From an uncultured Pelagibacteraceae bacterium (GTDB lineage: Bacteria; Pseudomonadota; Alphaproteobacteria; Pelagibacterales; Pelagibacteraceae): a stretch of DNA of 64,000 bases. Positions 13,849 through 45,926 of the stretch are shown here, one piece after another. Position 1 is the stretch's first letter. Every line of letters begins with the position of its first letter. The stretch lies in the NCBI GenBank assembly GCA_902587735.1, contig CACIML010000001.1, positions 1,014-65,013 on the forward strand. Reading direction: 5' to 3'. The notes beneath the pieces were generated by a model. That model did no database searches. It saw nothing but the letters and a program-made list of their open reading frames with translations, and was not told the DNA's origin. Both the position numbers and the translations under genes were made by a program.

Positions 13849-16011
13849 TTATCTTCCAATAGTCAAAACTGTTAGATCATCATTGAGTTTATCTTTATAA
13901 GAATTGCTTAAAACTTCTTTTGATATATTGTCTAATTCGTCTGTTAAGTTAGAATTAAAATTATTATTTATTATTTTTTTTGTTCCTTCAATTCCTATCT
14001 CTTCATTGTTTTTATTTAAACTTTCAGATAGACCATCTGTAAAAGAATAAAATCGATGTCCATTTAAATTTTTTTTATTAACTTGATAAACTGATTTATT
14101 TTTTTGAAAAATAACTCCTAAAGGAAGAGACTTAGATTCAAACTCTTCAAAATTACCATTTGTATGTCTAATCAAGGCTGGTTGGTGACCTGCATTTACC
14201 CATTTTACTTCTTCAGAAATTATGTCGTAGTTTCCAATAATTCCAGTTACAAACATACCAGCAGTTTTGGTATTAAATAAATCATTATTCATATGAAAAG
14301 CCATTTCATCTAAATCCACTTTTCCTTGAGACAACACTTCAAACAAAGTTGAGGCTTTTGCCATTACCATTCCAGCGTGAATACCTTTTCCAGCAACATC
14401 TGCAATTATAAAATAAATATTTTCGTTATTGGGGTAAAAACTAAAAAAATCTCCTGACATTTCTCTTGCTGAAATATTTATACCTTTTACTGGATAATTT
14501 CTTAAATTTCTTTTAGGGATAAAATTTTCTTGAACTTTTACAGCTAAATCTACTTCTTTAGAAATTCTATCTCTCCATTTATTTTTTTCAGCTTCGCTCG
14601 ACTCTAATTTGTCCATCATTTTATTATAATAAAGACCAATAACACCTCCTGCGGTAAATGGATCTTGTGGTCCTCTAATTTTGAGATCACCGGTAGTTGA
14701 TTGTCCGTCTAAAACTTTAATTAAATCATGTTCAACGGAAACTGCACCATGTTCTGCAATATTTAAACCTAATTCTTCATGAACAGGACTAACTCTTAAC
14801 GGATAAAATTTATTTAAAAATTTTAAAAAAGTAAATGAAATAATAAATGAAAACATTCCAATTGAAATTACTCCAATTGCTTGTACTTTAAATTGTTCTA
14901 TTCTTGATAACCCAGTATTTAGAGTTTCTAAGTCAGAAAAAATTGCTACCGCAAGAGTACCCCAAATACCAGCAACCAAATGAACTGGTATCGCTCCTAC
15001 CACATCATCTATTTCAAATTTTTCTAATAATTCAGATGCCAAAATTGCTACCACACACCCAATTGTTCCAATTATAATTGCTGAAACAGAGTCAACAGAA
15101 TTGCATGATGCCGTGATTGCTACTAAGCCAGCTAATGGACCGAGAACTATATACATAGGAACTGGTTTTTTTTTAGTTATATATGAAATAACTAAACCAG
15201 TTAATAAACCAAAAGCAGCAGCAAGAAAAGTATTTATCAAAATCAGTGGAACTGTTTCATCCATTGCACCATTGCTACCACCGTTAAATCCAAACCAACC
15301 AAACCAAAGAATTAATGTTCCTAAAATTGCTAAAGGAAAACTCGAGCCAGTAAATTTTCCTTTGTTTGCTTCAGAATATTTTCCTATTCTTGCACCCAAA
15401 ACTAAAACCCCCGCTAAAGCAATCCATCCACCTACAGAATGAACTATTGTGCTACCTGCAAAGTCAATAAATCCTAATTTTGAAAGCCACCCTCTGTTGA
15501 TTGTATCTCCAATAAGATATTTTGCCTCTTCGGACAAGCTTACTTTCATAAGGTAGCTAGAAGACCATGCCCAGTGCCCAATTATTGGGTATATTATTGC
15601 TGTTGATAAAACTGTAACAATTAAATATCCGGCAAATTTCATCCTTTCTGCTACAGCGCCAGAAATAATAGTTGCCGCAGTTGCAACAAACATTGCTTGG
15701 AAAACAAAATAGGTTTGGTATTCAGAAACATCAGTTTTAAAAAAAAATAAATCAGTTCCTATAACCCCATTATAAGAAGTTCCAAACATAATACCAAAAC
15801 CTATTATCCAAAACATCACAACAGAAACACCAAAGTCTGCTGCATTTTTTAGTGCAACATTAATACTGTTTTTATGTCTTGATAATCCACTTTCCATGCA
15901 CATAAATCCTGCTTGCATTATAAAAACCAATATAGCGCAGTCTATTACCCAAAGAGTATCTATATTCAGTGATAAGCTTGATACAATTTTATCCATCTTA
16001 TTCATGTCCAT
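13849..16011 (-). CDS. Ammonium transporter-PP2C/SpoIIE phosphatase fusion (copy 2)
   Basis: Amt: DFAGSTIVH, WFGWFGFNGGS, DDVVGAIPVH; PP2C: SGDFF, DVAGKG, NAGH, TDG, DDLT. Confidence 0.9.
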   Translation of the reverse strand: MDMNKMDKIVSSLSLNIDTLWVIDCAILVFIMQAGFMCMESGLSRHKNSINVALKNAADFGVSVVMFWIIGFGIMFGTSYNGVIGTDLFFFKTDVSEYQTYFVFQAMFVATAATIISGAVAERMKFAGYLIVTVLSTAIIYPIIGHWAWSSSYLMKVSLSEEAKYLIGDTINRGWLSKLGFIDFAGSTIVHSVGGWIALAGVLVLGARIGKYSEANKGKFTGSSFPLAILGTLILWFGWFGFNGGSNGAMDETVPLILINTFLAAAFGLLTGLVISYITKKKPVPMYIVLGPLAGLVAITASCNSVDSVSAIIIGTIGCVVAILASELLEKFEIDDVVGAIPVHLVAGIWGTLAVAIFSDLETLNTGLSRIEQFKVQAIGVISIGMFSFIISFTFLKFLNKFYPLRVSPVHEELGLNIAEHGAVSVEHDLIKVLDGQSTTGDLKIRGPQDPFTAGGVIGLYYNKMMDKLESSEAEKNKWRDRISKEVDLAVKVQENFIPKRNLRNYPVKGINISAREMSGDFFSFYPNNENIYFIIADVAGKGIHAGMVMAKASTLFEVLSQGKVDLDEMAFHMNNDLFNTKTAGMFVTGIIGNYDIISEEVKWVNAGHQPALIRHTNGNFEEFESKSLPLGVIFQKNKSVYQVNKKNLNGHRFYSFTDGLSESLNKNNEEIGIEGTKKIINNNFNSNLTDELDNISKEVLSNSYKDKLNDDLTVLTIGR

Positions 16012-16370: not shown

Positions 16371-16787
16371 TTAGCAATCGGTGGAGCGAGTGAGTTTTGT
16401 AGATTTATTCATTGTCAATTTACATTTTTTTGAAGATTTTGAGTCCTCCAGTGCCACTATTGTAAAATCAGATCCGCTTTTGACTGTGCACATAAAATAC
16501 CCCAAATCATCATTAATACTATCTGCCCCACCTAAAAGTTTTTTTTCTACAAGGTTTGATGACGCGTCATTAGCTGTACAATCACTACCTGTGGAGCCAT
16601 AATACTCGCCTTCATCTGAAAAATATTCTACTTGGCCTAAGGATACTTGTAACATTATATTTTGTGCAGATTTTCTTTTTGCAGATTTAACATAGCCACT
16701 ATAAGAAACCAACCCTGCTGCAGCCAAAATACCAATGATGGCCACAACAACCAAAAGCTCTATTAATGTGAATCCTCTTCTATTCAC
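16371..16787 (-). CDS. Type IV minor pilin (PilE-like)
   Basis: G|FTLIELLVVVAIIGIL; YSGYV..AKR; EYFSD.GEY. Confidence 0.8.
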   Translation of the reverse strand: MNRRGFTLIELLVVVAIIGILAAAGLVSYSGYVKSAKRKSAQNIMLQVSLGQVEYFSDEGEYYGSTGSDCTANDASSNLVEKKLLGGADSINDDLGYFMCTVKSGSDFTIVALEDSKSSKKCKLTMNKSTKLTRSTDC

Positions 16788-16814
16788 TTTAATGAATTTA
16801 TTTTTTTTCAGCTA

Positions 16815-17294
16815 TTATTCTATAGTAACAGTATTTTTTTCTGGTGTTCCTGTAGATGCTGCACAAGTTGCTATAGTAACAAGCGTTTTAGTGTTCTTAA
16901 CGAATGTTTTTCCTTCGTTACTTGTTGTACAACTAGTCATAGCTGCTGCTTTAGATACTGCTGCCTTAGTTGTATCGTAAGGATTTTTAAAACTTATTAG
17001 AGCTGCTACTGCACCATCTGCAACTTTGTCTGCTGTTTTTCTGTCACTACATGCTAGTTTTTTAGATCCATCTAAATCCATAACATTAGTTTCGCCCATG
17101 TTACATTTTTGAAGTTCTGCTGCTATATACTTTGTGGCTGTTGCATGGTTGGACTTTGCAGATGATTTTTTTGCTCCTTGTGTATACCCACTATAAGCAA
17201 CAACACCTACTGCTGCCAAAATACCTATGATTGCTACTACAACCAACAATTCGATCAGTGTAAAGCCTTTTGAATTTTTGTTTTTTTTATTCAT
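16815..17294 (-). CDS. pilA: Type IVa major pilin (probable expression locus)
   Basis: G|FTLIELL, C-terminal Cys pair; AGAGG RBS and own upstream intergenic region. Confidence 0.8.
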   Translation of the reverse strand: MNKKNKNSKGFTLIELLVVVAIIGILAAVGVVAYSGYTQGAKKSSAKSNHATATKYIAAELQKCNMGETNVMDLDGSKKLACSDRKTADKVADGAVAALISFKNPYDTTKAAVSKAAAMTSCTTSNEGKTFVKNTKTLVTIATCAASTGTPEKNTVTIE

Positions 17295-17834: not shown

Positions 17835-18248
17835 ATGAATATATCAGAATCAAAAGATTTTTTAGTCAGTTCTGCGAGTTTGAAAGAAGTTAGAGCCTTT
17901 TCAAGAGAAATATTAGAAAAAATTAATATCAATGAAGATCTCAAAGATGAGTTGGTTTTAGCAATTGCTGAGGCTGCACAAAATATTGTTAAACATGCTT
18001 ATAAAAATATAGATAGCACAACAGATAAAATGGAGATTAAAATATCTCTTAAAGATTCTGAACTTGAAATAGGTTTTTTTGACAAAGGAAGAGCTGTTGA
18101 TCCTGCTCATGTAAGACATAGAAAAATTGATGATATAAAACCTGGAGGACTAGGAACTTTTTTTATTCAACAAATCATGGATGCGATAGTTTTTAAAAAA
18201 GGTGAAAAACCTTGGATAAATCATCTTGTGTTAACAAAAAGAATATAG
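17835..18248 (+). CDS. RsbW/SpoIIAB-like anti-sigma factor Ser kinase
   Basis: LAIAEAAQNIVKHAY (N box), DKG, PGGLGTFFI. Confidence 0.9.
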   Translation: MNISESKDFLVSSASLKEVRAFSREILEKININEDLKDELVLAIAEAAQNIVKHAYKNIDSTTDKMEIKISLKDSELEIGFFDKGRAVDPAHVRHRKIDDIKPGGLGTFFIQQIMDAIVFKKGEKPWINHLVLTKRI

Positions 18249-21315: not shown

Positions 21316-22851
21316 TTATAAAATTCTTGGAGCTATAAACACCAATAATTCATTTAGGTTATCAGAATTTGACTTACCTTTAAAGAGATTACCTATTATA
21401 GGAACATTGCCAAGTCCTGGAGTTTGGTTCTTACTATTAGATAATTCATTCTTTTTAATTCCGCCAATTACAACAATATCACCATCTGCAACTAGTAATT
21501 TAGTAACTATTTCCATTTTGTTTATCGGTGGTTCATCAGATGCAGCTGCTCTATTAGGAGTGTCATTATTAACCTTTATATTTAACAAGACATTTCCATC
21601 TCCGATTATACTTGGTGTAACTTCTAACTTTAAAGCTGCTTCTTTAAATGAAGTTGATGTTGTTCCTTCAGACGTGGTTTGATACGGTATTTCTTCTCCT
21701 TGGGTAACTGTTGCTACTTGGTTGTCTAAAGTAAATACTTTTGGATTAGATATTGTTTTAGCCATACCTATGCTTTCAAGTGCTGTAATTTCTAATTTAA
21801 GTGCTGCTGAACCTGTTTGTCTTAAAATTCCAATACCACTTGTTGCGCCAATAGCTGGAAAACTTGTAATCGAGTCTGTGGAAGAACCTATAGCAGCTGA
21901 ATCAGTGTCCAAAGTTGCTTCTGAACTTGATCCTGTAATACCGCCCACTCTTTTTCCATTTCTAGTATAAAATCCACCCAATCTTGATCCAAGAGCTCTT
22001 TCAAATAGTGAGTTAGCTTCAACAATAAAAGCTTCTATTAAAACTTGTTTGGTTCTTACATCTATCTCTTTAATTACCTTATCAACAACATCTAAATCTT
22101 TTTCTTTACCTCTTACAATAATTGATCGTGTTGTTGATTCTTCTGTAACTTGTATGGGTGAATAAGATCCTTCACCGGTAGATGTAAATAATTCATCAAT
22201 AGTCGCTTTTGCTTGTGCAGGAGAAATATAATATAATCTAAATATTTCTGAATATATTGGTTCAACACTATCCTCCAACTCAACTTTATTCTTAACAGCA
22301 GCCGCTCTTTCAGATTTATATGATTCTTGCGAAGTCAATGTTTCAGGTGAGTGAATTCTAATCAAATTACTAGTAACATCTATGTCAGATGCATAATTTT
22401 TCATATCCAGCAAAGCTTGGAATGCTTTATCCCATGGAACATCTATTAACTCAGCGCTAATCGCTCCTGCTACTTCATCTCCAACCAAAACATTTATTTC
22501 TCCTATTTTACCCATCAATTTCATTGTTTCCTTAAAGTCTAAATTCTTAAACTTCAAAGTAATTCTTTGTTTTAATAATGGGAACGTGTCAGGAATTAAT
22601 AGATAATTTTTCTGAGCTTCAGATGATATTTTTTTTCTTTTTTTCAATTTTCTTGTGTCACCTTCTACAGGTTTAGGACCCATATCAAGAGTTTTTGAAA
22701 TTTCAGTTTTGCCTGTTTTTCTAATATCGTCTTTAATTAATGGTGTATTATGCTTAAATGGTTTATTCACATTTTTTAAATTTTGACAACCATTTAAAAA
22801 TGAAATCAAAAGTAATAAAACAAATAAATTAATAAATTTTTTAATATTCAT
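21316..22851 (-). CDS. pilQ: Type IV pilus secretin PilQ (lipoprotein-type leader)
   Basis: VPWDKAF, QVLIEAFIVE, QGEEIPY, PGLGNVPIIGNLFK, LLVFIAPRI; lipobox LNGC. Confidence 0.92.
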   Translation of the reverse strand: MNIKKFINLFVLLLLISFLNGCQNLKNVNKPFKHNTPLIKDDIRKTGKTEISKTLDMGPKPVEGDTRKLKKRKKISSEAQKNYLLIPDTFPLLKQRITLKFKNLDFKETMKLMGKIGEINVLVGDEVAGAISAELIDVPWDKAFQALLDMKNYASDIDVTSNLIRIHSPETLTSQESYKSERAAAVKNKVELEDSVEPIYSEIFRLYYISPAQAKATIDELFTSTGEGSYSPIQVTEESTTRSIIVRGKEKDLDVVDKVIKEIDVRTKQVLIEAFIVEANSLFERALGSRLGGFYTRNGKRVGGITGSSSEATLDTDSAAIGSSTDSITSFPAIGATSGIGILRQTGSAALKLEITALESIGMAKTISNPKVFTLDNQVATVTQGEEIPYQTTSEGTTSTSFKEAALKLEVTPSIIGDGNVLLNIKVNNDTPNRAAASDEPPINKMEIVTKLLVADGDIVVIGGIKKNELSNSKNQTPGLGNVPIIGNLFKGKSNSDNLNELLVFIAPRIL

Positions 22852-23290
22852 TTGTTTCCCTTATCTGATTATTAAAATCTATAATCATAAAAGTTTTATC
22901 TTCTTTTTGAAAAATGGCTTCAGTCAATCTTAAATCAACTAATTTTATATCGCCTAAATATTGAAAAAGTGAAAGTGTAATAACATCTCCTGAAGCATTA
23001 ACCAGTGAAATGTAGCTTTCATAGTTTCCAGAAATTAAACCTGCTAATTTATATTTATATAAACTCATTTCATTTTCCAATTCCTCTGGTTCTAAATCAG
23101 TTGTTGTATTGGAAAATGTAGTTGTGCCCTCATTTCCAGCAAAAGGATCATTCAGCGGAACTTCTTCTTCAAATTCAACAGTTGTATTTGTATTTTCAGT
23201 TCCAGAATCTGTGTCATGATTATCTGCAAATGTTATATTGCAAAATAAAAGTACAAATAAAATTATTATAAAATTTTTAAAAAAATTCAT
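22841..23290 (-). CDS. PilP-like protein
   Basis: Position between pilO and pilQ; DPF motif, YKLAGLI. Confidence 0.6.
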   Translation of the reverse strand: MNFFKNFIIILFVLLFCNITFADNHDTDSGTENTNTTVEFEEEVPLNDPFAGNEGTTTFSNTTTDLEPEELENEMSLYKYKLAGLISGNYESYISLVNASGDVITLSLFQYLGDIKLVDLRLTEAIFQKEDKTFMIIDFNNQIRETNEY

Positions 23291-23930
23291 CTGGTAATCC
23301 CACTATTGTTAACTCACCTGTTGCTATTATAGCTCCAGTTGAATCGTTTTGCACTATACTTATTGTTTCTTTATCAAAATTAAGCATTTTTTTAGATTTT
23401 GCTAAGGCTCTTTTGAACTTAATATAGCCTAAAAAATTCCCTTTTATTTCATATGTTACTGGAATTTTGTAATAAGAAACATTTTGCATTTCGGTCATAT
23501 TTTCAGCTTGTTCAGCAACACCTTCTTTTAATACGGCTTTTGGTTTTTTCTTCTCAATTTTTGATATAACAAGTCCGTTTACTCCAGCATATCTACTTAA
23601 ACTTTTATATAAACCTTCAACCTCAGCTTTTGAATGGAATAGCTTAGAACTCTCATTAAATTCTGGCTGTTTGTTCTTAATAGTTTTTTTATAAGTAGTT
23701 ATTTCTGTGTTCATCTGATTAATTTCTTCTTGTTTTAATACTTTGTCCTGAAATGTTTCTTTCTTTTTTTGAACTATAGGATTTAAGATAGAATAATAAC
23801 CAATTAAAAATATAAGAACTGCAAAAAAACCAGCTCCATATTTAATTAAAGTCTTTTTATCAATTGATTCTAATTTTGCTTTAATATCTTCTAGTTTTAT
23901 ATTTTTTAAATCTATGTTTTTTAAATCCAT
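23277..23930 (-). CDS. pilO: PilO-like alignment protein
   Basis: Single TM plus coiled coil; YYKIPV..EIKGNF. Confidence 0.75.
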   Translation of the reverse strand: MDLKNIDLKNIKLEDIKAKLESIDKKTLIKYGAGFFAVLIFLIGYYSILNPIVQKKKETFQDKVLKQEEINQMNTEITTYKKTIKNKQPEFNESSKLFHSKAEVEGLYKSLSRYAGVNGLVISKIEKKKPKAVLKEGVAEQAENMTEMQNVSYYKIPVTYEIKGNFLGYIKFKRALAKSKKMLNFDKETISIVQNDSTGAIIATGELTIVGLPDEFF

Positions 23931-26255
23931 TTAAATATCCTCCACAACACAGGCTATCCTGAAGCCTTTCATTTTTGGTTTTCCCGCTTCTTCGCCTTCA
24001 GGCAACATCATGCTTGCAAGGGAAGCTTGTAAAATTAATTTTTTAGAATTTAAATTATTTATAAGTTTTAAAATATCTTGGTCTGTAGATGCTATGCCTA
24101 CAATTACAATTTGATTTGATCCATCATAGTCAATTGAGTTAAATTTAACTCTTTTAGGCACTGCAGAAGCTATCTGTGCTAGTATTCTAAAGCTAAATTT
24201 TTTATTCGATTGAATTGATTGGCTCAGTTTTAAAGACTTAATTATAATTGCAACTTCTTTTGCATATTTATTTTTTTCTAAAGTTTTTAATTCGTGCTCT
24301 TGAACTACCTGGTCATAATCTGTTATTTTTTTATTTAAAGTTTGAATTTGCCAAAATGAAAAAGCAAATAAAATTACATAGATAGCTACGACTGCTCCAA
24401 CTACTCCTTTAAAAGCAAAGTTAGAAAAAATCTTTGCTTTCTTTTGTGCTATCATACTATGTCTATTAGGTAGCAAGTTAATATTTTTTACTGCAGTTAC
24501 AAATTTGTAGTAGCCAAACACATCAAGTTTTCTAAATGCTAATCCTATTACTGTTGAAAGATATGATCTGTTTTCTATATTAACTCTTTCTTCAATCTGA
24601 GCTGGAACTTTAATTTCTTTAATAGGATCAAATAAATTAAAACCAGTATTAACTAAATTTTTTCTAAAGCTTCCTAGATATGTATTGACGTTTTTTAAGT
24701 TTGAAACAACTCTTAAGCTACGAATTCTTTTTTCATATTTTGTTTCAAAATCTTGAATAGCTTGTTTTACTTGTGTGGTATATCTTCTAACTAAAGCATC
24801 CATCTCTTCTTGGTTATCTGAATTTAACAATGTAGTTCTATCCTGACCTCTAATAAAAATATCTGTAATGATTGGATTGTTTTCATATAATATCATTACA
24901 TAATTTTCATCTAATCCAAATTCTAATACTGCTGTTAAATTACTTTCTTCAATGGATCCACCGATTTGATTAATTTGGTCCACTGCAGATTTAAGTGCGA
25001 AACATTTAACATCAATTATCACTGCATTTAATCCACCTTTTTTAATTATAGATGTATAACTATTTATGTCTGATAATTTTGATGCAACAAATAAAATATC
25101 CATTGTGTTTGCAGTTTTATTTTTATTAATCACTTGATGAAAAATAGAATAGTCATTTAAATTATCTGTTAACTGTACTAAATTTTCCCAAAGTGAATCT
25201 GTATCAATTGCTTTTTTTAACTCCTCTTCATTCATTAAAGGTGCTGTAACCACTCTAATAATTGCACTAGTAACCGGAATTGCTATTGCCGCGTTAGTTG
25301 TGGTGATTTTTGATTTTTGTAATGCTACTTGAAGTTCTCCGGCAATTTTATCTGGATTTTCTAAAACAGTGGAATTATCAGGCAATCCTTCTACTGGATG
25401 AATAAAAAATTTATCTAAAACCCATTGATTGTTTTTATTATTAGATAATTGAGCTAATCTTATCTCTGTTGCAGCTAGTTCAACACCAACTATTTCTTCT
25501 CCTTGAACAGCAGATTTTCCAAGTTTTGCCTTAAAGAAACTTTCAAGTTTTTTTCTAATACCTTTTTTTCCTGATGATGAATTTTTTGCTACTGAATCTT
25601 GTTTCCCAAAACTTGGTTTTTTAAATTTAATATTTTTAAATTTTTCGAGAATGTTTGAAGCGGATTTTGTTTCTAAAGACTCTTTTTTAGGTTCTGCTTG
25701 AGTTGAAACAACATCTTCAGTGGCAAGTTCTGGTTTTTTTTCTGCTTCAGTAACAGATTCTGTTTGTTCAGATGTTTCTATTACTGGTGGCGTTGTCTGT
25801 TTTGGCGCGATAGAAGGTTGTTCACTTGTTGTTTGCGCTGTTTCTTGAGAAATTTTTTCTTCTTTTTCTTTACTTGCATGAACAAAATCAAACCACTTCT
25901 CTAATATCGGTATTGCATCATCTAGATTAGGAGTACCTGATGAAGAAATCTTTTGCTTTCCATCAATATATAGTCTGCCAACCCAATTTTTTGATTTTAG
26001 TTCACCTTTGTACTTATCTTGCCTTACATATATATGTAATCTTCCATCTTTTTTGTGAATTACTTCGTTTTCTTTTTTTTCTTCTACTTTAGATTGAACT
26101 TCAGTTTTATTTTCATCGTCAACGGTAGCAGAATCAGAAGATTCAGTAGTCTGACTTTCAGGTTTAGCAGATTCTCCTTCAAGTTGATCTTTTTCATTAA
26201 CAACTTCTTCTACTTTATCTTCTAAATTAATTTTATCTTTTTCTTCGTCGCTCAT
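23931..26255 (-). CDS. PilM-PilN fusion with acidic N-terminal extension and small integrase-arm-like domain
   Basis: Actin-like PilM (VGVEL, AIAIP, IIDV, IGLA) running into PilN (NINLLP, TM, coiled coil, IAS.VP..V). Confidence 0.85.
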   Translation of the reverse strand: MSDEEKDKINLEDKVEEVVNEKDQLEGESAKPESQTTESSDSATVDDENKTEVQSKVEEKKENEVIHKKDGRLHIYVRQDKYKGELKSKNWVGRLYIDGKQKISSSGTPNLDDAIPILEKWFDFVHASKEKEEKISQETAQTTSEQPSIAPKQTTPPVIETSEQTESVTEAEKKPELATEDVVSTQAEPKKESLETKSASNILEKFKNIKFKKPSFGKQDSVAKNSSSGKKGIRKKLESFFKAKLGKSAVQGEEIVGVELAATEIRLAQLSNNKNNQWVLDKFFIHPVEGLPDNSTVLENPDKIAGELQVALQKSKITTTNAAIAIPVTSAIIRVVTAPLMNEEELKKAIDTDSLWENLVQLTDNLNDYSIFHQVINKNKTANTMDILFVASKLSDINSYTSIIKKGGLNAVIIDVKCFALKSAVDQINQIGGSIEESNLTAVLEFGLDENYVMILYENNPIITDIFIRGQDRTTLLNSDNQEEMDALVRRYTTQVKQAIQDFETKYEKRIRSLRVVSNLKNVNTYLGSFRKNLVNTGFNLFDPIKEIKVPAQIEERVNIENRSYLSTVIGLAFRKLDVFGYYKFVTAVKNINLLPNRHSMIAQKKAKIFSNFAFKGVVGAVVAIYVILFAFSFWQIQTLNKKITDYDQVVQEHELKTLEKNKYAKEVAIIIKSLKLSQSIQSNKKFSFRILAQIASAVPKRVKFNSIDYDGSNQIVIVGIASTDQDILKLINNLNSKKLILQASLASMMLPEGEEAGKPKMKGFRIACVVEDI

Positions 26256-26277
26256 AAATTTTTAAAAATATAATTTT

Positions 26278-26635
26278 CTCTAACACAAATCATATGAATC
26301 TCTAACACAAATTAGAAGAATGTCTAACACAAAATTAAAAGTTGTATGCTCATATTGGGTCAAAATTAAAAAAAAGTGCAAATTAGATAATAAAATCAAC
26401 GTTTTTTTAAATTTTACAAAAAATATATATTTTTTGAATATTTTATAATTTTTTTGTTAACTCTAACACAAAAAGCAAAAACTCTAACACAATGTTAGTT
26501 TTTCAAAGAAAAATATTTTGTGTTAGAGTAAAAATAATTTTTAAAAAATTAAAAAACATAATAAAATCAACGTTTTTAGATTTTTCAACTTAAAATATAT
26601 TTTTTGTGTTAGAGTTAAATATCATTGTGTTAGAG
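26278..26635. repeat. Eight copies of 11-bp CTCTAACACAA, five forward and three reverse
   Basis: Forward at 26278, 26300, 26322 (GTCT variant), 26461, 26482; reverse at 26518, 26604, 26625; 21-22 bp spacing within clusters. Confidence 0.95.
26387..26577 (+). promoter_or_regulatory. 20-bp direct repeat with IHF-like site
   Basis: ATAATAAAATCAACGTTTTT at 26387-26406 and 26558-26577; one mismatch to WATCAANNNNTTR, A-tracts upstream. Confidence 0.55.
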
Positions 26636-26816
26636 TTTAATAATTTTTTTTAAATTTCAAAATATTAGAGTTTAAATTGTAAAATTATTTTTTTTTAAAA
26701 GTAAAAACTATCAAAATACCTTAGGTTGTAATTTGAAAACCTAAAAAATGGTAAATTTTTTTATAAAATTTCAATTATTAGTAGAAATTTAATTAAAAAC
26801 TACTTTTTTTTTATAA

Positions 26817-28046
26817 TTATACATTTTTAACAGTTGTCATCAGTATAAATCCTAAAATAAAAAAAATAGAAACTGAAAGGAAGCCAATCCTTTGAGAATA
26901 TAGATATGTTAAAGTTCCAACTGTTAATGGTCCAGCAAAGGCAGTTACACGTCCTGAAAAACTAAACAAACCAAAACCTTTTCCTAAATCATTTCTATTT
27001 AGCAAATTTGTCATCATTACTCTACTTGCACTTTGTATAGAACCAATAAAAAAAGAAATGACCATAACATTATAAAAAAATTCATTTTTTGTTTGTGCAA
27101 TCATAGATCCATAAAAGACTGTACCTGTTAAGACTGCGATACAAACTAAAATAATTATTTTGGAAGAAATTTTATCATTTAAATATCCACCAAGCAAAAC
27201 TCCAACGAAAGCAATTATGTTTCCAACGATTGCCAGTTTTAATAACTCACTTGGAGTAAAACCAAAAACACCTGAAGCATAAACACCACCACCTGCTATG
27301 AGTACAATTAAAGCATCAGAGTAAATCATTCTTGCTAAAAGAAATTTTCCAGTAGAAGTAAATTTATTTTGCCAAATTATTTCTATAATTTTTTTAAATA
27401 CTGGAACTGAGGTATAAGTTTCATCATAAAATATTTTTTTTTTGAAATAATAAATCATTGGTAAAGAAAAAAACAAAAACCAAAGCGCAACAACAATGGG
27501 AATGAATCTTATGTGTTCAAAATTATTTTTATCTAATCCGAAGGGAACTCTTTCAGGTAAAACAAATAAATATAATGTTAATAATATTATTGGAACAGAT
27601 CCAATGTAACCTAAAGCAAAACCAAAGCCAGAAGTTTTTCCAATATTATTTTCATTAGAACATTTTTTTAATAATGAATTATAAAATATAGATCCAACTT
27701 CGTAACAATAGTTTGAAATAAAAAAAATAATTAAAGTAAATAAAATATAATTTTGGTTTGGCTTCGCAAACCAGAAGAGGCAAGTTGTTAAGATACAAAG
27801 TAAAGTAAATATTTGTAAGAAATTTATTTTACCTTTAGGTTTTCTGTCAGCCAGAGCTCCAAGGAAAGGTCCGCTCAATGCAATTATGATTCCACAAATG
27901 CCAGCAGTCCATTGCCAATAAGCTGCTCCTATTTGTGGGTCACCAACAATTTGATTTGCGAAGTAAGCTGATGTTACAAATGTAATAATAATCATGGTAT
28001 AAGCTGAATTTGCTAGATCATACAGTGCGTAAAAAAATTTACTCAT
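26817..28046 (-). CDS. MFS transporter (UMF1/Atg22-like)
   Basis: YDLANSAY, LGALAD, FYNSLL, SGFGFALGYIG, QSASR. Confidence 0.85.
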   Translation of the reverse strand: MSKFFYALYDLANSAYTMIIITFVTSAYFANQIVGDPQIGAAYWQWTAGICGIIIALSGPFLGALADRKPKGKINFLQIFTLLCILTTCLFWFAKPNQNYILFTLIIFFISNYCYEVGSIFYNSLLKKCSNENNIGKTSGFGFALGYIGSVPIILLTLYLFVLPERVPFGLDKNNFEHIRFIPIVVALWFLFFSLPMIYYFKKKIFYDETYTSVPVFKKIIEIIWQNKFTSTGKFLLARMIYSDALIVLIAGGGVYASGVFGFTPSELLKLAIVGNIIAFVGVLLGGYLNDKISSKIIILVCIAVLTGTVFYGSMIAQTKNEFFYNVMVISFFIGSIQSASRVMMTNLLNRNDLGKGFGLFSFSGRVTAFAGPLTVGTLTYLYSQRIGFLSVSIFFILGFILMTTVKNV

Positions 28047-28048
28047 GA

Positions 28049-28594
28049 TTATTTTTTTATCTCCAATAAATATTCAAGCGCTCCACTCTTTTTCCATTTT
28101 TTAAGCAAAATACTTAAGTCTAAAGTAGTTTCTGTAACAAATTCTTTATAGATTGTTTTATACGCTGTACCAAGTTTAATTCCATCCTCAGTGTTATTAA
28201 GTAAAATATTTTTTTTACCTAGATTTAATACTTTTCTTCTAACTGTTTCTCTTGGAAGCTGAAGAACATCTGCAATACTCGCAAAAGTTAACTTGTTATT
28301 CTTTGCTTTTTTGTTTTTTCCAATCTCTGTCATTTGTTGTTCAAGTTCTGCAAATGTTTTAGTTCCTGATTTATTTATTTCATATAAAGAATGGCTAACA
28401 ACAACCTGAAGTATAACGAAGGATTCATAGTCTATCTTTAAATTTTCACGTACTCTTGTATATAAAGAGAGAATAAACATGACCCAATTGTAAAGTCCTT
28501 GAGAAAAAATAGGCTCTTTTTGACCTTTTTCTTTAACAGCTTCTTTAAAAGAAACCACTTTGTCTATGTTCATTGTAGCTTTTTCTAAACTCAT
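28049..28594 (-). CDS. Putative winged-HTH DNA-binding protein
   Basis: LTFASIADVLQLPRETVRRKV HTH; GGGGAG RBS before MSLEK. Confidence 0.65.
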   Translation of the reverse strand: MSLEKATMNIDKVVSFKEAVKEKGQKEPIFSQGLYNWVMFILSLYTRVRENLKIDYESFVILQVVVSHSLYEINKSGTKTFAELEQQMTEIGKNKKAKNNKLTFASIADVLQLPRETVRRKVLNLGKKNILLNNTEDGIKLGTAYKTIYKEFVTETTLDLSILLKKWKKSGALEYLLEIKK

Positions 28595-28776
28595 TTTAGT
28601 TTTTATTCTCCCCTTAATGGGTATGGTACAGCCTAAAATAGGCACAATCAATCCTTTATTAAAATCTGAATTTTAAGCTATGTTTATGAAAAATTCTCAA
28701 AAAATTGAAGTTTATAGTTGTTTTTTTTTCATTTAAAACAGTGAAAGTAATAAATATAAAGAGTAAAATATTAATT

Positions 28777-37554: not shown

Positions 37555-38097
37555 TTAGCACCAACCCGGCATTTCAAATACTATTCCACCGTATGATCCA
37601 ACATCTCCAGGATTTACTTGTGACTTTCTTAATGAAGATGAAGTGTCCCAAAGATCTGGGTTTAATTCTTTGTCAACATAAGTTCTTATATAAATTTTAC
37701 ACTTATTAAGACCTGTGTTTATATCAACGGCAATAGCTTCTTCAATATAACCACCCGTGAGCACCATGCATCCTCTCGTTGGTCTATAAACATTTGTACA
37801 AACATTATTATTCACATGAGCTAGTACTTTATTGGCAAAATCTGATTTACTGTTCGAACTGCAGCTATAAGTAACATTATTTCCTGAAGCGTCTTTAAAC
37901 ATTGCTTCACTACCAATTTCACAATCCATAGATTTGGTTACTAAAAACTTTACAACCAAATCATGATTAGATTTAATAGTTACATCTTTGGCTCTTGCTG
38001 TATACCCACTATACGCAACTACTCCTACAGCAGCTAATATTCCAATGATGGCAACAACGACCAATAACTCTATTAGTGTAAAGCCTTTTTGTTTCAT
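37555..38097 (-). CDS. Type IV pilin, array copy 1
   Basis: G|FTLIELLVVVAIIGILAAVGVVAYSGYT. Confidence 0.9.
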   Translation of the reverse strand: MKQKGFTLIELLVVVAIIGILAAVGVVAYSGYTARAKDVTIKSNHDLVVKFLVTKSMDCEIGSEAMFKDASGNNVTYSCSSNSKSDFANKVLAHVNNNVCTNVYRPTRGCMVLTGGYIEEAIAVDINTGLNKCKIYIRTYVDKELNPDLWDTSSSLRKSQVNPGDVGSYGGIVFEMPGWC

Positions 38098-38119
38098 AAA
38101 TTATTTATGAAAAATTTTT

Positions 38120-38890
38120 TTAACTTTTTGTAGAAACTGTAAATTTAACTTTTTTATCAGAATAATCTCTTCCAATTCCAGTTACACCGCCATCTTTGAT
38201 CCATTTAAGAGTTCCCGCTGCTCCCATACTGTTTGTGCAAGAAATCTGCCAAGTACCTTTGCCATCTGCTTGTAGAGAATATGAACCTTCACAAGTTCCA
38301 TCATTATTAGGTAGAGCTAAATTTAATGTGCCTTTATAATCTGCTTCACTAAACTCTACAGTTCCAGCAATTAAATCTGAATAACCTTCCCAGCTTAATG
38401 CTAAAGATCTTTCACCCTCTAGTGAATATTTTTTTACAACCTTCTCTTCCTTTTTCTTTTCTATTTTTTTAGTTTCTCCTCCCAAAAACCCTAGTTCTGT
38501 CAATTTAGCTTTAATTTCTGCATCGCTCCACTTGCTATTAATTCTGGATGCTTTACCTTTGGCAGGATTAATTCCATTTTTCCATTTTATTGACCTTCCT
38601 CTTGCAAACGTACCACATTCAGTATTGGTTTCTCTTTCGCATTGCTTAATTCCTTGGCTATCACTGCCTCTGCAGTTGCCAGCCCCATCTGGGCAATAAT
38701 AATAAATTGCCCACGATGAATCATTTGAAATTATAAATAACTCAGGAGCTTCAGAATGTTTTCCTCTTATATACTTCATAAAATAATCTACTGCCCAAGG
38801 TTCAAGTTTAAGCTCACCTTTTCCAGGTTTGCTAAAAGCATTACTGCTTAACAGTAAACCCAGAACCACGATCCCTAAAAGCTTTTTCAT
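38120..38890 (-). CDS. Secreted Cys-containing protein with MKKLLG leader
   Basis: Signal peptide MKKLLGIVVLGLLL; YYYCP...C...C...C..FA..R.I.W domain shared with 46520..47158. Confidence 0.7.
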   Translation of the reverse strand: MKKLLGIVVLGLLLSSNAFSKPGKGELKLEPWAVDYFMKYIRGKHSEAPELFIISNDSSWAIYYYCPDGAGNCRGSDSQGIKQCERETNTECGTFARGRSIKWKNGINPAKGKASRINSKWSDAEIKAKLTELGFLGGETKKIEKKKEEKVVKKYSLEGERSLALSWEGYSDLIAGTVEFSEADYKGTLNLALPNNDGTCEGSYSLQADGKGTWQISCTNSMGAAGTLKWIKDGGVTGIGRDYSDKKVKFTVSTKS

Positions 38891-39004
38891 CATCCAAGAT
38901 CTTAGCACAAAAAATCTGCTCACACTATATCCATGCTTGAACTGCAAATACTCACTTTTTAATTCGAATTAAGATTGTATTATAAGGATAAATAACCGGG
39001 GGCT

Positions 39005-39045
39005 TCGGGCTTATGAGTACCGCCCTCTAACCAACTGAATTATCC
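39005..39045 (-). pseudogene. Degenerate 5' half of a tRNA(CAT)
   Basis: Minus strand ...TCAGTTGGTTAGAG (D arm) ...ACTCATAAGCCCGA (anticodon arm); no T arm. Confidence 0.7.
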
Positions 39046-39117
39046 ATTAAACTATCATCTCTTTATAATAGAAAAGTTGTTTAGCATAAAACTTTAAGAA
39101 AATAGCTAACTAAAAAC

Positions 39118-39126
39118 TTATCCACA
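39118..39126 (+). promoter_or_regulatory. Consensus DnaA box upstream of guaC
   Basis: TTATCCACA, single copy. Confidence 0.35.
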
Positions 39127-39177
39127 GGCAATTTATTAATTTGAAATTAATTTTTATAATAATACCTTACGATTTAA

Positions 39178-40212
39178 ATGAGAATTGAAGAAGACCTAAA
39201 AATTGATTATTCGGATGTACTTTTTAGACCCAAGAGAAGCACTTTATCAAGTCGTAAAGATGTAGATTTAAAAAGAACTTACAAATTTAAATATAGCAAT
39301 AGCGAATGGTCAGGAATTCCAATCATGGCTGCAAATATGGATGGTGTAGGTGAATTAGGTGTTGCAGAAAAAATGTCTGAGTTTGACATGATTACCTGCC
39401 TAACTAAACAGCATGATATTAAAAAATTAAATCAATACAAAAAAATTAAAACAATTTACAAAAATATTGCTTTAAGTGTTGGTATTAAAAAAGAAGACTT
39501 CAATATGCTTGATAAATTATTGAAAGAATTTAATTTTATCAATTTTATTTGTATAGATGTTGCAAATGGATATTCAGAACGCTTCAGTAAGTTTATAAAA
39601 TCAGTTAGAGAAAAATATCCAACAAAAACAATAATAGCTGGAAATGTTGTTACCGCAGATATGACCCAAGAACTAATATTAAGCGGTGCCGATATAGTAA
39701 AAGTTGGTATCGGACCTGGAAGCGTTTGTACAACAAGAATTCAAACTGGTGTTGGCTATCCACAGTTAAGTGCTGTTATAGAATGTGCTGATGCAGCACA
39801 CGGTTTAGGGGCACATATTATTGCCGATGGTGGTTGTACATGTCCAGGAGATGTTGCAAAAGGTTTTGGTGCTGGTGCAGATTTTGTAATGCTTGGAGGA
39901 ATGCTTGCAGGTCATGATGAAGGTAAAGGTAAAGTTGTAAAAAGTAATGGAAGTAAATATATAGAATTTTATGGATCAAGTTCTGTCACAGCTAACAAAA
40001 AACATTATGGTGGTTTGTCTAATTACAGAAGTAGCGAAGGTAGAATTGTCAGAGTTAAGTACAGGGGAAAAATAAAAAATACTATTTCAAATATTCTTGG
40101 GGGAATCAGAAGTAGTTGTACATATGTTGGTGCACCTTCACTTAAACAATTAAGTAAATGTACTACATTTGTGAGAGTATCTAACCAATTTAACGATACT
40201 TTTGTAAAATAA
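39178..40212 (+). CDS. guaC: GMP reductase
   Basis: MRIEEDLK, RPKRSTLSSR, IDVANGYS, KVGIGPGSVCTTR, YRSSEG. Confidence 0.95.
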   Translation: MRIEEDLKIDYSDVLFRPKRSTLSSRKDVDLKRTYKFKYSNSEWSGIPIMAANMDGVGELGVAEKMSEFDMITCLTKQHDIKKLNQYKKIKTIYKNIALSVGIKKEDFNMLDKLLKEFNFINFICIDVANGYSERFSKFIKSVREKYPTKTIIAGNVVTADMTQELILSGADIVKVGIGPGSVCTTRIQTGVGYPQLSAVIECADAAHGLGAHIIADGGCTCPGDVAKGFGAGADFVMLGGMLAGHDEGKGKVVKSNGSKYIEFYGSSSVTANKKHYGGLSNYRSSEGRIVRVKYRGKIKNTISNILGGIRSSCTYVGAPSLKQLSKCTTFVRVSNQFNDTFVK

Positions 40213-40294
40213 TTAAAATCCTAACGCTGTGTGTCATATGTGAGTCAAGAATTTTCCAATTTTAGTATGCCAAATATTCTGATAACCTTTGGAT

Positions 40295-40567
40295 ATGAAA
40301 AAACTTTTAGGGATCTTGGTTCTGGGTTTGTTGTTTAGTGGGAATGTTTATGCAGAATGGTTAGTTGTTGTTAAAAACAAAATAGATGAAAATATTTTTA
40401 TAAAAAGAACCAAAATAACTGAAGATGAAGCTGTTGAAGCAGCTTTAAAAGGTTGTAGGATTTTATATCTACATAGAGTAGAGGGAAGTTCGATGAAACC
40501 TGCTAAAAAAAAAAAGATGCTAGAGCTGATGGAAGCTTGCTATGTTCATTCAGTTATAGAGCAATGA
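40295..40567 (+). CDS. Small secreted protein with MKKLLG leader
   Basis: Signal peptide MKKLLGILVLGLLFSGNVYA; two Cys. Confidence 0.65.
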   Translation: MKKLLGILVLGLLFSGNVYAEWLVVVKNKIDENIFIKRTKITEDEAVEAALKGCRILYLHRVEGSSMKPAKKKKMLELMEACYVHSVIEQ

Positions 40568-41052
40568 ACCAAAAAGCCTTCACCCTAATAGAACTCCTAG
40601 TCGTTGTTGCTATCATCGGCATTCTAGCTGCTGTAGGTGTGGTTGCTTATAATGGGTATACGTCTAGTGCCAAGAAAAAAGTTGCAACATCAAACCATTA
40701 TACTGTCGTAAAATACATTACCACAGAAATAAACAGATGCGACATTGGTGAATCTGAAGCAATGAATGGTAATCTTGTATGTTCTGGTATGACGACAGAC
40801 TCTATTGCGAAAGCAGCTGTTAAAACTTTATCTGATTTTAAAAATCCTTATGGCAAGGGTAAAGCAGATATAAATGAGAACGCTGTCACAAATAATAATG
40901 AAGATGTCAAAGATACATGGGATATGGGTTATGTTCGTCTAGAACCAACTACTGGTAGGATTTATATCCATACCTGTCCTTATTTTGACACTAGTCAATA
41001 TGGACAATGTCCGAACAATAATATTTTGCAAAGTATTATACTTGTAGATTAA
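40564..41052 (+). CDS. Type IV pilin, array copy 2
   Basis: MNQKA|FTLIELL...AYNGYT. Confidence 0.9.
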   Translation: MNQKAFTLIELLVVVAIIGILAAVGVVAYNGYTSSAKKKVATSNHYTVVKYITTEINRCDIGESEAMNGNLVCSGMTTDSIAKAAVKTLSDFKNPYGKGKADINENAVTNNNEDVKDTWDMGYVRLEPTTGRIYIHTCPYFDTSQYGQCPNNNILQSIILVD

Positions 41053-41618
41053 TGAACCAAAAAGCCTTCACCCTAATAGAACTCCTAGTCGTAGTAGCCA
41101 TCATAGGTATTTTGGCTGCCGTAGGGGTAGTTGCTTATAGTGGGTATACGAGTGCAGCTAAAGAGAGAATAGTAAAAAATAATTTTTCATTTGCTAAAAA
41201 ATTCATGCAACAACAAATAATGCAATGTGAAATTAATGGTAGTTTTTCTTGGTTAGATTACGATACCAGCAATAAAAAGCCATTAGGTCCAAAAATAATA
41301 AATTGTAGAAGTAGCGGATTAGATTATATGACATGGCAAAAGCATTTTATGTCTTCAGGCTATATGAACCCTTATGGCGAACAAACAAAAACTTTTACAG
41401 GAGGCAATGTGCAGAATTCTTGGATGGGAACGGGAAAATTTGGCATTATTGGAGTTTCAACTTTTTCCAATATGCAGACTTTAACACCAGTAGGAGCAGT
41501 TGTTCTTGGAGTAAAAGGTCAGTGGAATAATAAAAATTGCGAGGTAGAACTCCATTTTTTAGCGGCGATTAATGACAAGGAAATCTTGGGTCCAGAAAAG
41601 ATTTGTTGGGATAGATGA
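41052..41618 (+). CDS. Type IV pilin, array copy 3
   Basis: MNQKA|FTLIELL...AYSGYT. Confidence 0.9.
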   Translation: MNQKAFTLIELLVVVAIIGILAAVGVVAYSGYTSAAKERIVKNNFSFAKKFMQQQIMQCEINGSFSWLDYDTSNKKPLGPKIINCRSSGLDYMTWQKHFMSSGYMNPYGEQTKTFTGGNVQNSWMGTGKFGIIGVSTFSNMQTLTPVGAVVLGVKGQWNNKNCEVELHFLAAINDKEILGPEKICWDR

Positions 41619-41687
41619 AGATTGTTGTAACTTATTCAAGATTTCTAAATTATTGATCACACATTGGGCACAGTGGTAAAATGTTTT

Positions 41688-42245
41688 ATGAAACAAAAAG
41701 GCTTCACCCTAATAGAACTCTTAGTTGTCGTAGCCATCATCGGTATTCTAGCTGCAGTAGGGGTTGTTGCTTATAGTGGGTATACAAGTGCTGCCAAAAT
41801 TAGAGTCATTAAATCCCAACATGCTCAGGTTGTCAAATTTATGAATGCCGAATTAGCTAAATGTGAAATTACAGATAAAGCAATGAGTGGCTATTTAAAT
41901 TGTTCAGATAAAAAAAATGGTAGTAAAGTTATTCAAGCTACGACAATGGCGATGAAAGATTTGAAAAACCCTTTTAAAAACTCTTGTCATACTGTTAGAC
42001 CTAACAATCATAGTGGTCAAAATACTTCAGGATCTCAATCAGTAAATTGTTATCAAAGTAGAAATTATATTCGTAATGAATTAGAAGATGGAGGTTTTGT
42101 AAGTTTAAGAACTCAAAGAGAAACCATAGGAAAATATAAATATTGGACCATACATGTAAATACTTGTTATTCTCAAAAAGATTGTGGCCCAAATAAAATT
42201 AGTGATGAAGTTAGGATTACAGAGAATACTTTGTTAAATCCTTAA
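41688..42245 (+). CDS. Type IV pilin, array copy 4
   Basis: MKQKG|FTLIELL...AYSGYT. Confidence 0.9.
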   Translation: MKQKGFTLIELLVVVAIIGILAAVGVVAYSGYTSAAKIRVIKSQHAQVVKFMNAELAKCEITDKAMSGYLNCSDKKNGSKVIQATTMAMKDLKNPFKNSCHTVRPNNHSGQNTSGSQSVNCYQSRNYIRNELEDGGFVSLRTQRETIGKYKYWTIHVNTCYSQKDCGPNKISDEVRITENTLLNP

Positions 42246-42282
42246 TATAACAACCTAAGATACAATGTTAATATAATTTGGT

Positions 42283-42786
42283 ATGAAAAAAAATTTTAAC
42301 ACAAAAAAAGGATTCACATTAATAGAGCTACTAGTCGTTGTTGCAATCATCGGTATTTTAGCTGCAGTAGGGGTTGTTGCTTATAATGGGTATACGAGTT
42401 CTGCTAAAGTATCAACGCATAAATCAAATCATACTTTAGTTGTGAAATATATTTCTGCAGAGATTATGAAATGTGTCATAGGTGAAGAAAAGGCAATGGA
42501 TGGAAACCTTAAATGTTCAGAAAGATTAGATGTCCATGAAGGAAAACCAGGATTAAAAACTGTTAATGCAGCAATTACAGCTCTTTCAGATATGAAGAAT
42601 CCAGATGCAACACCAGGATATAAAAATAATGCGCCAAGAAATAGTAAGGATGCAACAAGTAATTATGATCTAGGTTTTGTAAATATTGATGTATCATCAA
42701 ACACTATTAGCGTTGTAACTTGTTATCAATTAGACTGTAAATCAGGTACTGATAATAAACTTATCAGTAATATTAATTTAGAATAG
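42283..42786 (+). CDS. Type IV pilin, array copy 5
   Basis: KKG|FTLIELL...AYNGYT. Confidence 0.9.
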   Translation: MKKNFNTKKGFTLIELLVVVAIIGILAAVGVVAYNGYTSSAKVSTHKSNHTLVVKYISAEIMKCVIGEEKAMDGNLKCSERLDVHEGKPGLKTVNAAITALSDMKNPDATPGYKNNAPRNSKDATSNYDLGFVNIDVSSNTISVVTCYQLDCKSGTDNKLISNINLE

Positions 42787-42810
42787 ACCTCGGGCTTATG
42801 AGTCCCGTGC
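42786..42810 (-). other. tRNA(CAT) anticodon-arm fragment (att-like)
   Basis: Minus strand GCACGGGACTCATAAGCCCGAGGTC; shares TCGGGCTTATGAGT with 39005-39018. Confidence 0.7.
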
Positions 42811-43320
42811 CTAATCTAAATAAACCTTATTTTCTAGTCTGTTTTTACTATCACTGCAGGGTAATTTAAAACAAGTACAAAAAGTTACATGGTCCATACT
42901 ATCATGGCCTTTTATCCAAACATACCCTAGGTACACATCACTATAAGACCCTGAACAAACACCAGGTTGAGATGCGGTTTGGCTGTGCAAATGTGTCTTA
43001 AAAGGATTTATAAATTGATTGTTGTCCCAATGAGTGCGTAAATGAAATGCAAAAAAATCCCATTTGTTAGGAGAATAACAAGCTATGTTGTATACAGTCT
43101 TATCGTTCCCTTTTTTCATTAAGTTTACACTTCCATTCAAATTACATTCTTGATTTATTAAGCTAACTTTTTTTACAAATGCAGCATGATTTGATTTAAC
43201 AACATTAGTTTTAGCACTAGCCGTATACCCATTATAAGCAACCACTCCTACTGCAGCTAGAATGCCGATGATAGCAACAACGACTAGGAGTTCTATTAGA
43301 GTGAAGGCTTTACGGTTCAT
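42811..43320 (-). CDS. Type IV pilin, array copy 6
   Basis: MNRKA|FTLIELL...AYNGYT. Confidence 0.9.
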   Translation of the reverse strand: MNRKAFTLIELLVVVAIIGILAAVGVVAYNGYTASAKTNVVKSNHAAFVKKVSLINQECNLNGSVNLMKKGNDKTVYNIACYSPNKWDFFAFHLRTHWDNNQFINPFKTHLHSQTASQPGVCSGSYSDVYLGYVWIKGHDSMDHVTFCTCFKLPCSDSKNRLENKVYLD

Positions 43321-43838
43321 CTAACGGTAATTGTAGTTTCGAGTCTATTTGAATCTTGTGAACAAGGTGTTTTAAAACATGAGCAAAATTCTATATTATT
43401 TGTTCCCGATGGGTAAACAGCATAAACTTTACCCACTCTATAATCTGTTTTACATTCTGGTGCATAACCGGAACTTGTTTTGCCATTTCTCTGCCAAACA
43501 CCTTCGTTATTATATGGATCTTTAACTACAGCGCCTGAATTATATAAATCATTACTTACACTTGCTTGGAAAAAATTCATCAAACTTATATCATAACAAG
43601 GAACATCGTAGATAGTTTGATTGCCCCATACTTTTTTTAACTTAACAGTATTTGATATGTTGCACATAGCTGCTACCTCTGCTGATTTTTTTGTTATTAT
43701 TTTAAAATGGGTCTTTGCAACACTAACTTTAGCGCTAGCCGTATACCCATTATAAGCAACCACACCTACAGCAGCCAAAATACCGATGATGGCTACTACG
43801 ACTAGGAGTTCTATTAGGGTGAAGGCTTTTTGGTTCAT
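43317..43838 (-). CDS. Type IV pilin, array copy 7
   Basis: MNQKA|FTLIELL...AYNGYT. Confidence 0.9.
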   Translation of the reverse strand: MNQKAFTLIELLVVVAIIGILAAVGVVAYNGYTASAKVSVAKTHFKIITKKSAEVAAMCNISNTVKLKKVWGNQTIYDVPCYDISLMNFFQASVSNDLYNSGAVVKDPYNNEGVWQRNGKTSSGYAPECKTDYRVGKVYAVYPSGTNNIEFCSCFKTPCSQDSNRLETTITVR

Positions 43839-43846
43839 GGTTTACA

Positions 43847-45287: not shown

Positions 45288-45289
45288 AT

Positions 45290-45922: not shown

Positions 45923-45926
45923 TTTT

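Follow-up and report, generated by a model that had tools for sequence, protein, structure and literature searches.

The PilM-PilN fusion protein (PilMN) of a SAR11 type IV pilus system bears, near its N-terminus, a domain homologous to the arm-binding domain of tyrosine integrases, and the region directly upstream of its gene contains an array of what appear to be the corresponding arm sites. Both were identified in a stretch of 64,000 nucleotides from an uncultured Pelagibacteraceae bacterium (contig CACIML010000001.1, positions 1,014 to 65,013), referred to here as the window. On the sequences compared, this pair of domain and site is real, conserved and widespread; its origin in a mobile element is traceable, and no counterpart was found to have been described. 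Its function we infer. The arm domain very probably binds the array, whose repeated unit is the 11-mer CTCTAACACAA, and with moderate confidence it is proposed that this binding on the array of its own operon tethers the pil locus at the membrane with repression of the operon.

The fusion gene (23931 to 26255, minus strand), taken from the list of open reading frames and Pfam matches, encodes 774 amino acids (aa) and heads the pilMN-O-P-Q-B-C run. Its product comprises, all on the minus strand, an acidic N-terminal linker of low conservation that is missing in some relatives (aa 1-63; 26067 to 26255); the predicted integrase-type arm-binding domain, placed by homology and model (aa 64-127; 25875 to 26066); a linker joining this domain to PilM, acidic then lysine-rich and variable in sequence and length (aa 128-256; 25488 to 25874); the Pfam matches to PilM_2 (aa 257-462; 24870 to 25487) and PilN (aa 691-769; 23949 to 24185); and, between the last two, a transmembrane helix predicted by hydropathy scan (about aa 614-635; 24351 to 24416). 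The PilM and PilN domains, the membrane helix and the pilO-P-Q-B-C context identify the protein as the alignment subunit of a type IVa pilus. The PilO match was below the Pfam cut-off in the window and the gene in the pilP position had no Pfam match; pilT, minor pilins and pilY1 were identified near the run. According to the predicted topology the DNA-binding-type domain, which precedes both PilM and the helix at aa 614-635, would lie on the cytoplasmic side of a membrane-anchored chain. A PilM-PilN fusion and two pilus versions in SAR11 are reported in the accessible part of a preprint on Arctic Pelagibacterales (10.64898/2026.10.07.757358), and the role of the SAR11 type IV pilus is called unclear in the available text of another source (PMC12789548).

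The initial annotation of the window had placed an ordered segment between two acidic linkers at the N-terminus of this fusion. That layout was found at aa 64-127, flanked by 22 aspartate or glutamate residues in aa 1-63 and 16 in aa 127-200. A true start codon downstream of the domain, which would remove it from the protein, is unsupported: the next methionine after aa 1 is aa 341, in 91 of 96 distinct loci the frame stays open for at least 330 aa past the domain, and several relatives' proteins start directly at the arm domain. The other five loci comprise two with early stops, at apparent homopolymer frameshifts, and three in which the end of the locus was reached first. A programmed frameshift freeing a lone arm domain was also considered and was rejected, as only those two loci stop early and at differing homopolymer positions.

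The resemblance of the segment to an integrase arm domain, first recognised by eye, is borne out by sequence homology. A phmmer search recovered 126 matches among 1.84 billion representatives, including the N-termini of proteins of 411-436 aa (P0214: E 2.9e-12, 54%). PF00589 was identified in 7 of the 26 matches scanned, in one of them (P0214) above the curated cut-off, with the arm-like domain at their N-terminus. A profile made from integrases only recovered the window's domain at E 6e-24. Applied to 301 genomes of the order, it identified four integrases that are full and a fifth that is partial; the closest integrase domain (L146) is identical to the pilus domain at 40 of 62 positions. A lookup in the ESM Atlas with a stored integrase homologue returned integrase clusters only, and a PHROGs scan of the domain named no family. 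By these comparisons aa 64-127 are confirmed as a homologue of the N-terminal domain of a tRNA-Leu tyrosine integrase, a class assigned by direct homology and not by membership of a named Pfam family.

The AlphaFold model obtained with a 40-row alignment (pLDDT 85.8) has strands E5-8, E13-22, E25-37 and E40-45 and helix H51-72, the single-sequence model being poor (pLDDT 48.8). This is a three-stranded sheet with a C-terminal helix, as the initial annotation had read from the sequence, plus one extra short N-terminal strand. A beta-sheet plus helix is also the topology of the AB domains found N-terminally in RKHRH-type tyrosine integrases such as lambda Int, Tn916 Int and HPI/P4-like Int (3jtz, 3rmp), as described in the accessible part of PMC8138268. 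No other part of the fusion is conserved as well as the domain: across 75 fusion proteins and 700 random pairs (L055 left out) its identity is 90.6% and its ratio of nonsynonymous to synonymous polymorphism (pN/pS) 0.089, compared with 76.6% and 0.236 for PilM and a pN/pS of about 0.9 for the poorly aligned linkers. The arm domain is thus under strong purifying selection.

The array comprises eight copies of the 11-mer, seven of them exact, at 26278-26635. At one mismatch or fewer, 10 copies were found in the whole window against 1.65 expected, and none of 100 shuffles reached 10. The sites form three groups: a proximal cluster of three arm-type sites (26278 to 26332, plus strand, at 26278, 26300 and 26322) with 22 base pair (bp) spacing, 23-77 bp upstream of the ATG; a middle cluster (26461 to 26528) with sites at 26461 (plus), 26482 (plus) and 26518 (minus); and a distal pair at 26604 and 26625 (26604 to 26635, minus strand). 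Between the proximal and middle clusters lies a motif resembling the site of integration host factor (IHF) (26391 to 26408, plus strand), with one mismatch to the IHF consensus, and a second IHF-like motif (26562 to 26579, plus strand) is found at the midpoint of the conserved 86-bp gap between the middle and distal clusters. Just upstream of the proximal sites is a short conserved quasi-palindrome with a CA-3 bases-TG core (26348 to 26361), which occurs with an AAA or TTT centre and is loosely like the att core of tRNA-Leu. The Rfam scan of the array gave no match and the tRNA scan of the window identified none; a reading of the array as CRISPR was rejected, as units of 11 bp in mixed orientation are not CRISPR-like.

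Across loci the sites and their phasing are kept while the spacer sequences have diverged. In 66 distinct upstream regions, neighbours of the same orientation are 20-23, 84-87, 96-97, 115-119, 126-132, 139, 148-153 or 161 bp apart, the commonest spacings between neighbours being 21, 86, 22, 23, 20, 85, 127 and 128 bp. Helical phasing is evident as a mean cosine of 0.82 at a 10.7-bp period for spacings above 40 bp, and of 0.62 over 25 distinct values. The centre of the 86-bp gap has a conserved TTGATTTTA-type motif, and complete genomes contain three PF00216 genes, consistent with HU plus IHF. Arrays comprise from 6 to 11 sites, which point either way and mostly stand two helical turns apart, and in most arrays three sites lie less than 80 bp from the ATG; the 11-site arrays (L216, L218 and L219) were formed by tandem duplication of a site/IHF-like/site unit. 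The array adjoins the start of pilMN irrespective of the upstream gene, which varies among genomes. It was a single cluster per genome in five of five complete or near-complete genomes with the fusion and absent in five of five without it.

The integrases recovered by the protein search reside at tRNA-Leu att sites, where each end has 11-bp repeats in tandem close to the core. Such direct repeats beside the att core were identified in G182, G310, G135, G084, L284 and L320, the integrase elements of G182 and G310 being about 5 kb and inserted in tRNA-Leu genes. CTCTTACACAA-type repeats accompany the two integrases whose domains most resemble that of the pilus protein (40/62 and 38/60 identical), and CTCGTACAC-type repeats the two in which a 5-residue loop is missing (33/59 and 29/58 identical). 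When metagenomes were scanned for adjacent pairs, 120 loci were obtained, mostly unrelated, and were screened in six frames together with 29 viral loci; among the 149 were a full integrase (L284), a fragment of an integrase (L320) and nine loci with pilMN or a probable pilMN. In L284 an exact tandem CTCTAACACAA follows the 5' half of the tRNA and the core (domain 35/55 identical), and in the attP-like fragment L320 an exact tandem stands on both sides of the core, before the integrase start (domain 34/56 identical). Site placement in both matches that in the elements found by protein search. These comparisons show the 11-mer to be, at the level of sequence, an arm-type site of an integrase family related to the pilus domain. 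PilMN and the integrases share the approximately 11-bp repeats, set beside the att core in the latter, and IHF-like motifs between sites. Unlike the integrases, PilMN lacks the core-binding and catalytic domains and carries its arm domain on a membrane-anchored pilus subunit; unlike integrase att sites, the pilMN array carries between 6 and 11 sites, oriented both ways and mostly at two-turn spacing, and no core or partner site was identified for it. As a separate observation, the elements L174 (G182:C3), L175 (G310:C1) and L284, each of about 5 kb, are inserted in the anticodon loop of a host tRNA-Leu(CAA) and contain their own complete, different tRNA-Leu right after the integrase, followed by more arm-like sites and then by a resolvase-like gene recognised by eye.

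Domain and array occur together across SAR11. The first sample had the array in nine of nine domain-bearing loci and in none of ten domain-less ones. In the survey of the 301 genomes of the order, pilMN was identified in 107 and the fusion in 52 (56 genomes with a domain match minus three with an integrase only and one with a fragment), so that about half of the surveyed SAR11 genomes with a type IV pilus contain it. The tandem motif was identified in 51 genomes, all within these 52, and in none of the 55 with a domain-less pilMN; the remaining fusion genome presented nine variant sites in its place. The co-occurrence of domain and repeats that the initial annotation had proposed as a check therefore takes the form of strict pairing. 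In the reverse direction, the domain adjoined the tandem motif in 79 of 80 long-flank GTDB loci among the matches listed, which were at least 120 loci of about 190, 40 of the 120 having short flanks. Of the 80 GTDB matches listed for the motif, 78 are filed under Pelagibacteraceae; L020 and L086 are one contig. The exception among the long-flank loci (L045) looks chimeric, and its break comes before the domain. This contig, filed as Cryomorphaceae, carries a SAR11 array and the pilMN 5' end followed by unrelated genes, and is probably chimeric.

In the window's genome the pair appears to have been acquired as a unit. On a quick PilMN tree of 51 representative rows (L055 not among them) three changes of the domain are needed, one gain, one loss and one regain, and the window's PilMN core nests inside a domain-less clade with a support of 98. 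This fits a history in which one pilus lineage gained the domain at its base, one clade lost domain and array jointly and the window's genome regained them. All nine 300-base tiles over 25800-28499 had their best match in L087, a domain-bearing locus (226-271 identical). Over 22500-25499 a domain-less locus was the best match in 9 of 10 tiles; on the pilT side the tile comparison is weak, pilT being missing from the fetched flank of most domain-bearing loci. The junction is spanned by independent contigs, among them one of 544 bases from another run, with 3 differences. As judged from these matches, domain and array came together by recombination into a domain-less pilus system. The block swapped in (approximately 25500 to 28700) comprises the arm domain, the array, an MFS gene (26817-28046) and a gene resembling a helix-turn-helix (HTH) regulator (28049-28651). 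Two observations stand beside this: an imported block of this kind shows that versions of the pil system exchange parts, and the block from pilT to GAF/SpoIIE (28705-49837) appears inverted relative to pilMN when compared with most domain-bearing loci.

In the proposed mechanism the predicted arm domain would bind the 11-mer sites upstream of its own operon and, the chain being membrane-anchored, this binding would hold the pil locus at the membrane, where the base of the pilus is. PilMN is present in several copies per machine. With the protein anchored in the membrane and its domain on a linker that is long and flexible, these copies could share the phased sites, an arrangement which the two-turn spacing and the 6-11 sites would suit, while IHF would bend the gaps between the site clusters. 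Since three sites lie less than 80 bp from the start codon, full occupancy of this proximal cluster, 23-77 bp ahead of the ATG, would block further transcription and so limit the number of machines; a vacant array, at a locus with no machine or freshly replicated, would permit a new machine beside its genes. Machine number and position would thereby be coupled to locus copy number. Chromosome tethering and autoregulation, both suggested in the initial annotation, are compatible with the anatomy of the locus as read from its sequence. Like ParB/parS and the looped operator arrays of LacI/GalR, the system would have clustered phased sites near the gene of the binder, used in positioning or autorepression; fold and site are different, and the putative binder is a pilus component. 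The transmembrane regulators VtrA/VtrC-VtrB of type III secretion system 2 and ChiS/TfoS are likewise of a membrane-anchored DNA-binding type, with a nanomachine-related locus at the inner membrane (available parts of PMC9977878 and PMC11856585). Unlike these dedicated sensor-regulators, PilMN is a structural subunit of a machine, and its domain derives from a mobile-element integrase.

Several observations weigh against this interpretation or parts of it. Of the arm/AP2-like structural matches expected by the initial annotation, the arm domains 3jtz and 3rmp did obtain the top Foldseek probability (0.60, E 0.67, TM 0.51), but no match reached E<=0.001, and the VIA score of 3jtz (Z 5.7, rmsd 2.7, 59 aligned) was equalled by unrelated folds. 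The Pfam arm-domain families gave no match, the best of 40 members of clan CL0081 being DUF6538 at E 0.013, and a PDB sequence search of the domain gave none; AB domains are described as often missed by Pfam in the accessible part of PMC8138268. The strict IHF-like pattern was identified in only 35 of the 66 upstream regions (mean 0.77 vs 0.28 shuffled). The promoter scan of the array was at chance (7 sites vs 5.7 shuffled), so the sign of the regulation is guessed from the position of the sites; a TTGACC-18-TTTAAT candidate picked by eye was not conserved across loci and carries no weight here. It was the motif itself that picked out L284 and L320, 2 of 149 scanned loci of mostly unrelated DNA. 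Neither domain nor array is present in 55 of the 107 pilMN genomes, hence the module is dispensable for the pilus system. Finally, the surveyed genomes are kin, with only about three independent gain or loss events, and domain and array being adjacent, linkage alone predicts their co-inheritance.

The main rival to repression is activation or pure positioning through the same binding, PilMN bringing the locus to the membrane in a transertion-type positive feedback without any repression, a course judged fairly unlikely. All the evidence for the pairing of domain and array fits it equally well, and membrane capture of a locus activates expression in the Vibrio systems VtrA/VtrB and ChiS/TfoS (as given in the available parts of PMC9977878 and PMC11856585). 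No activation domain, however, is evident in PilMN. Sites close to the start codon are more usual for repressors, and most arrays have three sites so placed, less than 80 bp from the ATG.

An active att role of the array is unlikely, and to a much greater degree. The array would then serve as an att-like site at which an integrase acting in trans moves or rearranges the pil island, the PilMN domain being an accessory or competitor, and the equality of the 11-mer with real arm sites, the IHF-like motifs between clusters, the differing gene upstream, the acquisition of the window's block by recombination and the quasi-palindrome loosely like the tRNA-Leu core would all agree with it. On the other side, each of the five complete genomes has one array and no partner att site, the window has no tRNA, the array spacing is mostly 21-23 bp against 11 bp at att sites, and the swapped block has its ends near pilT and within pilM, away from the array. 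Only 1 of the 52 fusion genomes contains a full integrase of the family, elsewhere in that genome, and no cognate catalytic integrase was found in the window's genome (G000, 68% complete).

Capture of incoming DNA at the pilus base, as an uptake-sequence receptor or for nutrient DNA, with the array as a secondary element, is very improbable. SAR11 pili have been suggested to help DNA uptake (PMC12789548, in its accessible text) and one pilin of the window has a weak ComP_DUS match; against this, the 11-mer is not distributed genome-wide but forms one cluster per genome, and ComEC was detected in none of five complete fusion genomes and none of five others and DprA in none of the same five fusion genomes, the positive controls being detected. 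The tether for incoming DNA proposed in the initial annotation is accordingly not upheld, nor is its role in pilin recombination, no motif cluster being present among the window's pilin genes. Regarding the competence genes themselves, ComEC was not found in ten near-complete genomes (G066, G073, G081, G142, G252, G082, G085, G105, G013 and G064) and DprA was not found in five of these, pilMN being present in nine of the ten.

Slightly less probable again is that a different protein binds the array and that the arm domain is a protein-protein or nonspecific DNA-binding module; the HTH-like gene near the window's array and the predicted status of binding by the arm domain leave room for it, but the HTH gene was identified upstream in only 11 of 78 loci analysed and the 11-mer matches the sites of the arm domain's own integrase relatives. 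The weakest reading, an inert scar in which an integrated element left its att arm and the 5' end of its integrase fused to pilM, probably accounts for the origin of the pair, arm sites directly upstream of an arm domain being the natural att-int order, and is largely refuted as to the present by the selection on the domain, the most conserved part of the protein, by the retention of sites and phasing despite spacer divergence, and by the growth of arrays to 11 sites through duplication of the unit.

A second fusion of the arm domain was identified in phages. Five IMG/VR contigs encode a protein of 115-116 aa formed by the arm domain and a hydrophobic C-terminal peptide (protein P0248; arm-peptide loci L140-L143 and L184-L188), the other 22 of 27 loci giving partial matches, nearly all to the peptide region alone. 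The protein is recorded on 359 contigs of up to 173 kb, and the hydrophobic peptide of 40 aa also occurs without the arm domain in other phage contigs. The neighbours of the gene resemble large-phage genes, as recognised by eye. Four partial phage records showed no array, viral contigs yielded no tandem 21-bp pair, none of the 29 viral loci having a tandem pair at 11 bp contained a member of the arm-domain family, and GenBank phages searched with the integrase and the phage protein gave no match. The phage protein is a possible membrane-anchored mimic.

A more far-reaching version of repression with tethering is offered tentatively and is rather doubtful: that an integrase/att pair was turned into a centromere-like dock for the pilus, self-silenced and relicensed by replication, with one machine per chromosome copy. 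A ring of PilMN would wrap the IHF-bent array of eight sites and the operon would be off while a machine is present; replication would make a vacant array, and each chromosome copy would build and inherit one machine. Phages would possibly mimic this dock, and the arm domain-membrane peptide of large marine phages may switch off or hijack the pilus.

Other elements were identified around the pil genes of the window. They comprise at least 13 pilin-like genes with N-methyl motifs (16371-17294 and 37555-46430), among which the one at 16371-16787 has its ComP_DUS match above the cut-off, an ammonium transporter-SpoIIE fusion (13849-16011), an RsbW-like kinase (17835-18248) and a GAF-SpoIIE phosphatase (48545-49837).

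In the literature covered, where subscription papers are thinly represented, neither the array nor a PilM with an arm domain was found described. The main text of the Arctic preprint, in its accessible part, contains no N-terminal DNA-binding domain on PilM-PilN and none of the words 'arm', 'promoter' and 'intergenic' (10.64898/2026.10.07.757358). If the proposed reading is true, a structural subunit of a bacterial nanomachine would be reading a dedicated chromosomal site, and the system would clearly exemplify, in bacteria, the joint domestication of an integrase's DNA-binding domain and its binding site. It offers a defined protein of 64 residues, a site of 11 bp and natural strains with and without both, and the pair may serve as a compact, orthogonal tool for locus tethering. 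With these elements the control of the SAR11 type IV pilus could be addressed, as well as whether the genes of an envelope machine are physically held at the site where that machine is assembled.

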